Assembly (NCBI GenBank): GCA_902761535.1
Contig: CACWKS010000002.1
Coordinates: forward strand, 270,611-334,610
Direction: 5' to 3'
Source: an uncultured Pseudomonadota bacterium
GTDB lineage: Bacteria; Pseudomonadota; Alphaproteobacteria; RF32; CAG-239
DNA length: 64,000 bases
A program made the position numbers and the translations under genes. A model generated the notes under the pieces. The model worked only from the letters and a program-made list of their open reading frames with translations, had not been told where the DNA came from and did no database searches. Position 1 is the first letter of the stretch, and every line of letters begins with the position of its first letter. This document shows, piece after piece, positions 29,682 to 32,998 of this stretch.

Positions 29682-32024
29682 TTATTTTTCAGCCTGATGC
29701 AATACGATTTGCGTAAACGGAATTTCAATTCCCTCTTCTTCAAAACGTTTATTTATGGCAAAACGCACATCGCTGGGCGTTGTCCAACCGCTCCAAATAT
29801 CATTGACATAAAACCGCACTTCAAAATCCAAACTGCTTGATCCGAAATCTTGGAACAATACATAAGGTGCCGGCTTTTTAGAAACTTTAGGATGCGAAGC
29901 CGCACATTCCAACAAGACTTTTTTAACCTTGTCAACATCTGTTCCGTAGGCAACCCCGACCTTAACTCCGTAACGAGCCCAACTGTTTTGGTGAGTAAGA
30001 TTGGTAACCGAATTTGATAAAACTTTAGCATTGGGAATTATCAGGCTGGCGCGATTAAAAGTTTCAATTTCGGTTGAACGAATATTAATCTGTTTAACCT
30101 GACCTTCTTCGCCGTTTATAATTACCCAATCCCCGACTTTTATCGGCCGTTCAAACAACATGATAATGCCGGAAACAAAATTATTGACAATATCTTGCAA
30201 ACCAAGTCCGATACCTACCGATAATGCGCCGGCGATTAAAGCGATGTTGGTAAGGTTGCCTCCCATAATCGCAATCGCCAACAAGGCCGATAACACATAA
30301 CCTATATAAGCAAAACCCGAAGCCAATGAATGTTTGGTTCCTGTATCAATCGAAGTTTTTTCCAATAATTTAAACTCGATTCGGTCTTGCAAAAATCTTA
30401 TCAACCACAAGCATAATACAAAGGCTAAAATTCCCCAAAATATCGAAATCAGAGAAATTTTTACTCCGCCGACCGTAAAACCGGAAACAGCTTTATAAGC
30501 AATGTTTTGCAACACATCAATCGGCATTCCCCATAATATCAACAATCCGGTGATTAAAGCCAGCACCATCAGCGGTTCAACTGCCAATCCAAACCAAAAA
30601 TCAACTTTACGCAGAAAAATACGACGGACCCGAAAACTCTTCACCCACAAAGCCATAAATAAAACTCTTCTCGCCACATCATAGAAAAAGCGCCGTAAAA
30701 TTGAATAAGCAAATATTGCTATCAACGACAATAATGTTCGATTAACCGCAAAAAATGCCAATCTTGCATAACCGCAAAAAGCCAAACCTATCACCACTGC
30801 CGCAAACAAGGTAACCAATACCCCTATACGTGATGCTCTGGCCTTAGCAGCTGATGCGGCTTCATCACTTTCTTTCTTGTCATTATCACTGGTAAAATAA
30901 ATATAAGCCAACCACACCATACAAACGGCTCTAACCGTTGCAGACAAGGCCATTAAATATGCCAACAGCTCTATCGAATAATTTTGCTTGGCTACAATCG
31001 CCAACAAAATTGAGAATATACCCACCGTATAAATTGTAAAGTTAATAGCCTTAAACAAACGCTTGGCTTTATAAGTTGACATATTTATCAACCGCCATTT
31101 CTCGTTATAAGGCGTCAAAACAACACGCGCAATTGCCCGTCCCATAATCACAAACAACACATAATATAAAGTTGTCCGCAACACCATTTTAAGCAAATCA
31201 TTATTCCAAAATGCAATCTGATTAAGATGAAACCAACAATATAAAACTATTGCTGTGGGAATAATCCCGTAAGCACACCACACCGATACCGAGGCTGCAA
31301 TCTTATTTCCCAAACGAATATTTTCCAATTCTTTGCGATAGCCCCAACGTTCTATCATCCAACGCCTTAAATAATACCCTACAATTGCAATAACGATTAA
31401 TAGGCTCAAAAACTTGAATACCGCCACTCCGAAACCGGAATTTTTATCTTCTTTATACTCATCATATGCCGAAACCGGTGATTTAACAATATCAGCTAAT
31501 AATCCTACCAATTCACGATTAACCCGCCACAACACTGCAGGGTTAATCAACCGCAAATCAGATTTCAGCATATTACCCCACAGCATTTGATTACGTGCTT
31601 CAAAAATACGCAAATTTATCTCTTCGATTTTGGCCAAAAGTATATCTATTTCCGATAATCTTGCTTTTTCATCTTTCAATTCGGCACTGAATTCTTTACG
31701 CTTTTGGGCTATAACTTTTGACTCACCGGTTTCCTCGTTTTTATCGCCTAAAGCATCCAATCTTTTTTCTATAAGTTTTACTTCCAAATCAATATTTTGG
31801 CGTGATGAAATAAGAAGCGAAAAAGTCTCGTTCAGATACGAAGTTTTTTCGACCAAAGCTCTTATATCGGGAGCACTTTCTTTGGTCATAGCTTCAATAG
31901 ATTTAAGCTGAGCCGATATTTCTTTATAACTCAGCTCATCACCCAAATTATCGACATAACTATTTTGCGCCCAAGCATTGCTCCATAATAAAATTGCAAT
32001 AAAACAAATAATTAACTTCTTCAT
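29682..32024 (-). CDS. mechanosensitive channel, MscK/KefA-like (MscS family with large N-terminal periplasmic coiled-coil domain)
   Basis: signal peptide, long coiled-coil region, about 11 TM, conserved MscS core ...DWVIINGEEGQVKQINIRSTEIETFNRASLIIPNAKV. Confidence 0.85.
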   Translation of the reverse strand: MKKLIICFIAILLWSNAWAQNSYVDNLGDELSYKEISAQLKSIEAMTKESAPDIRALVEKTSYLNETFSLLISSRQNIDLEVKLIEKRLDALGDKNEETGESKVIAQKRKEFSAELKDEKARLSEIDILLAKIEEINLRIFEARNQMLWGNMLKSDLRLINPAVLWRVNRELVGLLADIVKSPVSAYDEYKEDKNSGFGVAVFKFLSLLIVIAIVGYYLRRWMIERWGYRKELENIRLGNKIAASVSVWCAYGIIPTAIVLYCWFHLNQIAFWNNDLLKMVLRTTLYYVLFVIMGRAIARVVLTPYNEKWRLINMSTYKAKRLFKAINFTIYTVGIFSILLAIVAKQNYSIELLAYLMALSATVRAVCMVWLAYIYFTSDNDKKESDEAASAAKARASRIGVLVTLFAAVVIGLAFCGYARLAFFAVNRTLLSLIAIFAYSILRRFFYDVARRVLFMALWVKSFRVRRIFLRKVDFWFGLAVEPLMVLALITGLLILWGMPIDVLQNIAYKAVSGFTVGGVKISLISIFWGILAFVLCLWLIRFLQDRIEFKLLEKTSIDTGTKHSLASGFAYIGYVLSALLAIAIMGGNLTNIALIAGALSVGIGLGLQDIVNNFVSGIIMLFERPIKVGDWVIINGEEGQVKQINIRSTEIETFNRASLIIPNAKVLSNSVTNLTHQNSWARYGVKVGVAYGTDVDKVKKVLLECAASHPKVSKKPAPYVLFQDFGSSSLDFEVRFYVNDIWSGWTTPSDVRFAINKRFEEEGIEIPFTQIVLHQAEK

Positions 32025-32998
32025 TTCATTTCTTTCTTTAACATTGTGATTAATTCAACCAAATTTGCCGCTGTTGTTTTTTTGACATCACCGGCTATCC
32101 AAAAACTTACCCCTTTATCACTTCCGTCATCTTGCCTTATCCTGCTGATAAAAATATCTTTCTCCCCCTGAACATCGGTCAAAGCCGCATAACCTCCGTC
32201 TTTTTGCGAATCTACCACCAAAAATCCTTTTGCCTTCTTAAATATATTTCTCACTTCTTCCGGCGTAACATCTCGAGCACATTCAATATTGACAAATGCT
32301 CCCAAGCCGACAAAAACCGGCACAATTGCACAATTGACATGAACTTTAAGTTTTTCCCCTAAAATACGTTTAATATCAACCGCCAATTTCCATTCTTCTT
32401 CAGTTTCCTCACCGATAAATCCGCCAACCTGAGGAATAACATTAAAAGCCAAAGTTTTTGGAAAAACTTTTTTATCGGCAGGTTCTTCGTTCATCAAAAT
32501 TTTTCTGGTATGATTATACAATTCACTCATACCGTCCTGTCCGGCAATATCAGCTCCGCTTAAAACGGTTAATTTTACATCTTTTATATTTAAATCTTTT
32601 AATGCATATATAGCCTTAGCCAAAGGCAAAGACAATCCCCCTATTGTATTGATTATATTATATCCTTTAATCGGCATAGCAGCAATTGCCCAGGGAATCT
32701 CCTGATAATCACTCAATGCCTCGGTAGCGTTAATTACTTTAACACCGGCATTTACCCAATCGTGAGCATATTCTTTAGCCAAACGTTCATCACCGACAAA
32801 TACCGCCAAATCATAATCTTGTGCTTTTGCCTCCTCAGCATTTCGCACCGCAAAAATCTTATCAACACAATCTATTTTTTCTCCGACCTGCGGTCTGGAA
32901 GCAAACACCTCGATATCAAAATTTTTGCCTTTTTCAATCAAGGCTTCCAACACTTCTCTGATATCGGCAGTTATTCCTAAAAGAGCTATTTTCATCAT
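32021..32998 (-). CDS. aspartate-semialdehyde dehydrogenase-like protein lacking catalytic Cys/Arg/His (USG-1-like pseudoenzyme?)
   Basis: ASADH-like blocks AFNVIPQVGGF, EEEWKLAVDIKRILG, LTVLSGADIAGQDGMSEL; but Cys of NC(S/T)T replaced (INTIGG), CVR->CAI, RCHS->VGLG; start overlaps mscK stop (ATGA). Confidence 0.6.
   Translation of the reverse strand: MMKIALLGITADIREVLEALIEKGKNFDIEVFASRPQVGEKIDCVDKIFAVRNAEEAKAQDYDLAVFVGDERLAKEYAHDWVNAGVKVINATEALSDYQEIPWAIAAMPIKGYNIINTIGGLSLPLAKAIYALKDLNIKDVKLTVLSGADIAGQDGMSELYNHTRKILMNEEPADKKVFPKTLAFNVIPQVGGFIGEETEEEWKLAVDIKRILGEKLKVHVNCAIVPVFVGLGAFVNIECARDVTPEEVRNIFKKAKGFLVVDSQKDGGYAALTDVQGEKDIFISRIRQDDGSDKGVSFWIAGDVKKTTAANLVELITMLKKEMK

Follow-up and report, generated by a model that had tools for sequence, protein, structure and literature searches.

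The asd-like gene and its channel neighbour

The stretch of DNA considered here (referred to as the window) comprises 64,000 nucleotides (nt) of a contig from an uncultured alphaproteobacterium of the RF32 group, and its subject of interest is a pair of overlapping genes on the minus strand. The upstream gene (32021..32998) encodes a protein of 325 residues with the fold of aspartate-semialdehyde dehydrogenase (ASADH, encoded by asd), in which the catalytic and NADP-binding residues are all replaced, and is called the asd-like gene in the following. The downstream gene (29682..32024) encodes a mechanosensitive channel of the MscS family, which is 780 residues long and of MscK-like architecture as judged by Pfam, NCBIfam and hydropathy. 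Both genes meet in an ATGA junction (32021..32024, minus strand), where the asd-like gene ends with TGA (32023-32021) and the channel gene begins, within the same four letters, with ATG (32024-32022), and an identical overlap of 4 nt is found at the loci L081-L085. A first-pass annotation of the window had already reported this overlap, which is real, but in the reverse order: it is the asd-like gene that lies upstream, with its stop codon on the start of the channel gene.

Both Pfam domains of ASADH are matched by the asd-like protein above the cut-off of 26 bits, strongly in the case of the C-terminal dimerisation domain (PF02774; 83.5 bits, 2.7e-23) and weakly in the case of the NAD-binding domain (PF01118; 29.3 bits, 1.2e-6). 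The protein aligns end to end with ASADHs of solved structure, the closest being Asd2 of Vibrio cholerae (2qz9; 4e-26, residues 3-322), and the three collinear blocks from which the homology was initially proposed (AFNVIPQVGGF, EEEWK..IKRILG and SGA..GMSEL) are all present within this full-length alignment. Five NCBIfam equivalog models of ASADH also match over the full length, all of them far below their cut-offs. The best of the NCBIfam matches is PRK14874, with 172 bits and a cut-off of 223, while TIGR01296 reaches 153.8 bits (cut-off 324.2), TIGR00978 31.8 bits (cut-off 301.2) and TIGR01745 21.3 bits (cut-off 402.9). The models PRK05671 and PRK08040, which we take to represent the USG-1 group, score 115 and 103 bits, below their own cut-offs and below the canonical models (172 and 154 bits). 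Comparison with profile models of ASADH and USG-1 thus identifies a full-length homologue of ASADH, but one that stays under every curated cut-off and that scores lower still with USG-1.

In the channel, hydropathy delineates a signal-like N-terminus, a polar domain of ~175 residues and ~11 hydrophobic helices up to residue 612, a layout which we take to be that of MscK. The core is of the MscS type by Pfam (PF00924, beta domain, 81 bits; PF21082, C-terminal, 70.7 bits), which places the protein in the MscS superfamily. The name mscK, which had been given to this gene, is a loose one: the MscK model yields 215.9 bits against a cut-off of 991 and covers residues 510-775 only, that is, the C-terminal 266 residues or just the C-terminal third. 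The channel shares its MscS domains, polar N-terminal domain and ~11 hydrophobic helices with channels of the MscK, MscM and DUF3772 types, but it falls far below the equivalog cut-offs of both MscK and MscM and forms a subfamily of its own with ~65 clusters, the next homologues of which, mostly of the DUF3772 type, are at most 34% identical.

Loss of the active site and of the cofactor site

Alignment places the former active-site codons of the asd-like gene within 32303..32641 (minus strand). The Asn-Cys of the NPNCST motif, which includes the nucleophile, is replaced by Gly120-Gly121 (codons 32636-32641), the active-site Gln by Ser147, the Arg of the CVR motif, which binds the substrate carboxylate, by Ile225 within the sequence CAI (codon 32324-32326), and the catalytic His by Leu232 (codon 32303-32305). 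In addition, the phosphate-binding Arg of SSxxR has become Ser96. The dinucleotide-binding motif (32957..32977, minus strand) is degenerate as well, reading G8-I-T-A11-D-I-R14 instead of the canonical G-A-T-G-N-V-G, with GATGNVGR aligned to GITADI-R. Some details of the first description need to be corrected accordingly: the column of the nucleophile Cys holds Gly121 rather than Thr or Ile, and in the region corresponding to CVR..RCHS the His is Leu232 as claimed, whereas the Arg is Ile225 and not Ala. The degeneration of the N-terminal GxxGxxG motif was described correctly (GITADIR), and in the family as a whole G8 alone is conserved.

The same losses extend far beyond the window. A cluster search covering 5.8 billion proteins defined a family of at least 86 clusters at 90% identity, whose 86 representatives are 35-91% identical to the asd-like protein and are followed by canonical alphaproteobacterial enzymes with intact NPNCST and CVR...H motifs at 34% identity or less. 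Furthermore, a scan of one genome per species recovered at least 28 loci of this pseudo-type, among 80 loci in the matches listed. Cys, Arg and His are absent from the catalytic columns in all of the 86 nearest cluster representatives and in 28 of 28 species-level genome loci, and the family-level equivalents of R96, N120, C121, Q147, E201, K204, R225 and H232 are all variable; Glu201 and Lys204 are kept in the protein of the window, yet they are not conserved across its family. The claim that every catalytic residue has been lost is thereby borne out, and its recurrence in 86 representatives and 28 loci means that the pattern is not due to chance. With the Cys, the His, both Arg, the Gln and the NADP-binding glycines gone, reduction of aspartyl phosphate would be impossible. 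The asd-like protein is therefore almost certainly dead as an ASADH, and, as far as can be read from its sequence, it probably does not bind NADP(H) either.

Could catalysis have been retained by relocated residues? H220 (99%) and C223 (95%) are conserved in the family and might be proposed as a substitute pair. C223 is, however, equally conserved in canonical ASADHs, where it is not the nucleophile, and the two residues stand at i and i+3 on one beta-strand, a geometry that would direct them to opposite faces. Moreover, neither of the substrate Arg, nor the Gln, nor the NADP motif has survived, and such an enzyme is chemically implausible, and an intact Cys/His pair elsewhere, named at the outset as evidence that would speak for an active enzyme, was sought and no alternative conserved pair was found at active-site positions. 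We consider a working ASADH of this kind hardly credible.

One deep member of the family (L022, 6001-7002) has kept a complete GAMGNVG motif, with Cys, Arg and His absent. This combination suggests that loss of the active site preceded decay of the cofactor site.

Fold and selective constraint

A model of the asd-like protein, computed with AlphaFold2 from a family alignment of 42 sequences, has a mean predicted local distance difference test (pLDDT) of 88.4 and a predicted template-modelling score (pTM) of 0.87, and is weak only at residues ~165-200. Searching with this model in Foldseek retrieved Asd2 of V. cholerae (2qz9) with a template-modelling (TM) score of 0.86 and the USG-1 homologue of Pseudomonas aeruginosa (2hjs) with a TM score of 0.83. 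Structure prediction, which the first-pass annotation had suggested as a check, hence shows that the two-domain fold of ASADH is retained. The likeness to Asd2 comprises this fold, collinearity over the full length and common C-terminal motifs (AFNVIPQ, E-W, SRIRxD, W300 and D304), whereas the asd-like protein differs from ASADHs of the Asd2 type by its replaced catalytic and NADP residues, its scores below the cut-offs, its poorly conserved N-terminal domain and the neighbouring channel gene.

The coding sequence is under strong purifying selection. The ratio of nonsynonymous to synonymous substitution rates (dN/dS) is 0.18 in comparison with a 91%-identical relative and 0.23 with a 62%-identical one, and it lies at ~0.04-0.25 in most pairs of the family. 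Across sequences down to ~35% identity, 28 residues are invariant. Constraint is distributed unevenly: the frequency of the most common residue is 0.45-0.6 at residues 1-140 and 0.7-0.86 at residues 150-300, and dN of the N-terminal domain is 1.5-3 times that of the C-terminal domain, although the former is still constrained. The positions of strongest conservation lie in the C-terminal domain and are mostly common to real ASADHs (M157-x-E-L, K181, AFNVIPQ, F194 and T199, and further E202-W203, SRxRxD, W300 and D304), while N170, E198, N206, H220, N222, D275, Q277 and E279 are conserved specifically in this family. The three marks of a pseudoenzyme, namely homology to an enzyme, loss of the catalytic residues and purifying selection, are thus all found, and the asd-like protein is very probably a functional protein under selection. 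Judged from the pattern of conservation, its function sits mainly in the C-terminal domain and is independent of the old active site and, across the family, of NADP.

On average the asd-like gene evolves at the same rate as its neighbours, with mean distances of 0.77 for the asd-like protein, 0.78 for the channel and 0.82 for MurD. In the comparison with the 91%-identical relative at L083 (window positions 31000-32998), the two genes differ in their synonymous divergence, which amounts to 0.23 for the asd-like gene and to 0.75 for the channel gene over its first 384 codons; a recombination breakpoint or unequal constraint are possible explanations of this contrast.

Conserved linkage to the channel gene

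The pairing of both genes is tight in relatives. The channel gene starts -4 to +41 nt from the stop of the asd-like gene in 26 of the 28 species-level genomes, down to 35% identity, and the distance is -1 to +41 nt at 25 of these loci, the exceptions being L017, L033 and L025. The same arrangement is present on four independent metagenome contigs, at least 15 pairs of asd-like and channel clusters share the same longest contig, and the channel subfamily mirrors the asd-like family. Outside this family the association was not encountered, as the canonical asd loci examined have no channel neighbour, and no asd-like gene adjoins the channel homologues of 34% and 27% identity, the second of which is of the DUF3772 type. 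Such adjacency, including the ATGA overlap, is typical of genes for ancillary subunits and predicts co-expression; co-transcription of the asd-like gene with the channel gene is likely. The proposal of a pseudoenzyme or repurposed enzyme that is coupled to a channel is hence supported by the loss of residues, the fold, purifying selection and the pairing, with co-expression remaining a prediction.

The short distances also invite a different explanation, according to which the asd-like open reading frame (ORF) is a relic of the original asd that has stayed open mainly because ribosomes must pass through it for the channel gene to be translated. The 4-nt overlap and the short gaps would fit coupling of this type, and in some lineages the asd-like gene is faster than the channel gene and has undergone deletions, for example in members of 310 residues. 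A spacer ORF would, however, not conserve amino acids, so that the low dN/dS, the invariant residues and the confident fold speak against a relic, as does a Shine-Dalgarno-like sequence of the channel gene itself, a purine-rich GGAG/AGGA-like stretch which precedes its start at most loci. A relic is quite improbable on this evidence.

A putative cytoplasmic partner of the channel

The reading which we favour is that the asd-like protein is a non-catalytic pseudoenzyme that is co-produced with the channel and probably serves as its partner in the cytoplasm, and we assign to this reading a rough probability of 0.35. In such a mechanism, the protein would still dimerise via its conserved C-terminal domain, translational coupling would provide it in a fixed proportion to the channel, and it would act as a cytoplasmic accessory or regulatory partner in the assembly, stability or gating of the channel. 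That the protein works on or with the channel at all is a tentative proposition. A bolder version, in which it would be the first case of a cytoplasmic accessory subunit dedicated to an MscS-family channel, produced with it by translational coupling and recruited in host-associated Alphaproteobacteria after or alongside the loss of the amino-acid biosynthetic dehydrogenase function, is more doubtful.

Ancillary subunits derived from oxidoreductases are established as cytoplasmic regulators in other systems, namely KefF and KefG of the K+ efflux systems KefC and KefB, and Kv-beta of eukaryotic K+ channels. The likeness to these systems lies in a relative of a dinucleotide-binding fold which is encoded directly upstream of, and overlapping with, a channel or efflux gene. 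Their folds (flavodoxin-like and aldo-keto reductase) are, in contrast, unrelated to ASADH, KefF is still an active enzyme, unlike the asd-like protein, and the putative partner here is a channel of the MscS type.

Several observations weigh against a partnership with the channel. At L025 (6001-7017) the asd-like gene stands without a channel gene within 6 kb, and at L033 (3479-8252) a spacer of 1 kb precedes the channel gene, whose ORF is also longer (910 residues). A mirror-tree comparison of 14 taxa showed no co-evolution of the two proteins beyond their common phylogeny, with a partial correlation of -0.09 between them once MurD is controlled for. In the subclade of the window the asd-like protein diverges much faster than its neighbour, some pairs having 41% identity in the asd-like protein but 71-73% in the channel. 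Synteny of hisS, the asd-like gene, the channel gene and murD within the clade means that the adjacency may partly be inherited gene order. Furthermore, a presumed dimer that meets a heptameric channel of the MscS type would face a symmetry mismatch, and no fusion of ASADH and MscS domains was seen among the family and profile matches.

To our knowledge, the association of an asd-like gene with a channel gene has not been described before. The literature search returned no paper that links ASADH-like proteins with mechanosensitive channels, the co-mentions being concerned with ectoine or lysine production. Its near-universal, tight placement before a clade-specific channel of the MscK type, in common gut and rumen Alphaproteobacteria, makes this family a rare functional handle on dead relatives of ASADH. 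Should an action on the channel be borne out, this would add a layer of accessory subunits to bacterial mechanosensation and provide a clean example of the recruitment of an enzyme as a regulator, and at least one branch of the unexplained, USG-1-like dead ASADH proteins would receive a concrete and testable role.

Phylogenetic position and relation to USG-1

The 28 pseudo-type loci all originate from metagenome-assembled genomes (MAGs) of uncultured gut or rumen Alphaproteobacteria with GC contents of 29-53%, some of which are labelled 'Azospirillum sp. 51_20' or 'Acetobacter sp.'. In a neighbour-joining (NJ) tree, the asd-like family is monophyletic in 100 of 100 bootstrap replicates and nested within alphaproteobacterial asd, and the USG-1 homologue of P. 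aeruginosa, the one USG-1 sequence in the tree, falls inside the family in none of 100. Monophyly and the position of USG-1 outside the family imply an independent loss of function rather than orthology with USG-1.

Orthology with the USG-1 family of Escherichia coli, Salmonella and Pseudomonas would otherwise be an obvious explanation, since the 'USG-1 protein homolog' 2hjs is found at 3e-21 and, besides its similar structure, also lacks the catalytic Arg and His; like the asd-like protein, USG-1 combines an ASADH fold with a function that is not known. USG-1 (2hjs) keeps, however, GATGSVG and a Cys near the site, neither of which is present in the asd-like family, and its models score below the canonical ones, as detailed above. 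The genomic context differs as well: in Salmonella, usg is located in the order pdxB-usg-truA-dedA (PMC6358828), with no adjoining channel gene, and this enteric context (pdxB-usg-truA) is not seen in the window, which has hisS, the asd-like gene, msc, murL and murD. USG-1 is thus a separate lineage, and we regard orthology as highly improbable. The designation 'USG-1-like' remains useful as an analogy, but membership in that group is contradicted by the NJ tree and by the scores of the family models.

Dead relatives of ASADH are already on record, as the USG branch and some sequences of the Asd2 branch have lost catalytic residues, and nothing more is known about them (PMC12041015). What is new is this lineage and its specific coupling to a channel gene. 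A profile search of 1.84 billion representatives at 50% identity assigned ~8-10 representatives to the asd-like family, and about half of the best 150 profile matches lack the canonical set of Arg, Cys, Gln, Arg and His in many combinations, with many of them keeping GxxGxxG (P0351-P0492). Degenerate ASADH-like proteins therefore appear to be widespread and polyphyletic at the level of sequence, and their diversity would be far greater than the literature implies for these relatives without a known role (PMC12041015).

A candidate for a missing link, P0087 (L086, 6864-7883), was considered and rejected. It has lost the Cys (SPSAPT) but kept the Arg, the His and the NADP motif, it adjoins feoA on a contig of 69% GC, and it has no channel neighbour. 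Its position as sister to the asd-like family in the NJ tree may be an artefact of long-branch attraction.

Canonical asd in the same genomes

A further alternative is that the asd-like protein serves as a dead partner subunit ('prozyme'), which pairs in a heterodimer with a canonical Asd from another locus and modulates that enzyme. This is consistent with the best-conserved residues being largely common to canonical alphaproteobacterial Asd and located in the C-terminal dimerisation domain, as well as with the half-of-sites reactivity that operates across the ASADH dimer (PMC12041015). A canonical asd is, however, found neither in the window, where no second asd homologue is present within the 64 kb, nor, among the 80 loci in the matches listed, from any of the 28 assemblies with a pseudo-type gene, which is a weak test because it is limited by the search pattern. 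In addition, a prozyme would leave the conserved coupling to the channel unexplained, and we consider it rather unlikely.

Genes of the diaminopimelate (DAP) or lysine pathway are absent from the annotated parts of the window. When the canonical asd at L026, from the gut alphaproteobacterial lineage UBA2903, served as the query, that lineage alone was matched; UBA2903, labelled 'Acetobacter sp.', has a canonical asd without a channel neighbour, and no pseudo-type copy among the matches listed. One apparent case of a canonical and a pseudo-type gene on a shared contig (20,363 bp) proved to be a false coincidence. Together, these observations hint that canonical and pseudo-type asd are mutually exclusive, and if this is so, the pseudo-type gene would have arisen by decay of the orthologue itself; the term paralog, used in the first-pass annotation, is thus unproven. 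Papers on organisms of the RF32 type contained no relevant metabolism. Should these genomes contain no asd homologue besides the asd-like gene, this would mark the loss of the aspartate-family and DAP pathways in an uncultured lineage that is abundant in the gut; either way, metabolic reconstructions of these MAGs would be corrupted by the automatic label 'aspartate-semialdehyde dehydrogenase'.

The remainder of the unit and the peptidoglycan genes

The channel gene is followed, after a gap of 12 nt, by a gene for a MurL-like UDP-MurNAc-L-Ala-L-Glu epimerase (28356..29669, minus strand), which matches NF041275 over its full length with 435 bits, below the equivalog cut-off of 700 bits. This gene is overlapped by 26 nt by that of a MurD-family ligase (27113..28381, minus strand), MurD2-like by context. 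The unit ends with tRNA-Thr(CGU) (27001..27076, minus strand) and an intrinsic-terminator-like hairpin behind it, with a stem of 16 pairs and a T run (26951..26985, minus strand). This is the only terminator-like site with a long stem downstream of the start of the asd-like gene, apart from which one weak site of 6 pairs occurs within murL. On the other side, the asd-like gene is separated from hisS, which lies upstream and is divergent in the subclade of the window, by an intergenic region (32999..33112) that is presumed to contain the promoter. A scan for sigma-70 promoters gave counts not above those of shuffled sequence and no consensus match in this spacer. A scan of the unit for riboswitches and leader RNAs returned only the tRNA and noise below the threshold, and none of the four proteins was matched in a PADLOC scan for anti-phage defence.

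At 11 genome loci, synteny extends over the asd-like gene, the channel gene and a murD-family gene, with MurL between the latter two in the subclade of the window and the murD-family gene directly after the channel gene in most other genomes. The asd-like protein might accordingly be a repurposed ligand-binding protein or a new enzyme in the supply of peptidoglycan precursors, acting with MurL and MurD, while the channel would be present merely as part of an envelope operon. The ancestral ASADH feeds meso-DAP into peptidoglycan, the partial correlation between the asd-like protein and MurD, controlling for the channel, is 0.79, and the family conserves specific polar residues, listed above. 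Most of these residues, however, differ only conservatively from their canonical counterparts, no conserved pocket is evident, since the Rossmann motif and every known ligand position vary within the family, and the tightest and most universal junction is that with the channel gene and not with murD. A role in precursor supply is therefore unlikely, although it has more in its favour than a prozyme.

The pair of MurL and MurD-family genes (27113-29669, minus strand) encodes an alternative route to the D-Glu of peptidoglycan, in which L-Glu is added and then epimerised, and it is also present at L008, L081 and L091. The MurL pathway has been listed for few genera only (PMC8788868), and gut Alphaproteobacteria carry a MurL-like gene here.

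Other features of the window

Between the tRNA-Thr with its terminator and a group of flagellar rod genes lies an ORF of 1544 residues without a Pfam match (22194-26828, minus strand). At L081, flagellar genes follow within ~450 nt after the tRNA-Thr, and from this short distance the region of the ORF looks like an insertion of 4.7 kb beside a tRNA. Orthologues of HisS are 433-434 residues long and align from residue 13-14 of the ORF of 446 residues (33113-33155, plus strand), so that the true start of hisS is probably an ATG at ~33146-33155; the divergent promoter region would then be wider. Further along, a PcfJ-like protein of 742 residues and three unannotated ORFs of 183-187 residues adjoin a tRNA-Glu (37923-42626), and a phage-repressor or Wmk-like protein with a helix-turn-helix domain is found together with an IS1-like transposase (46383-50430); both of these segments are probable remnants of mobile elements.

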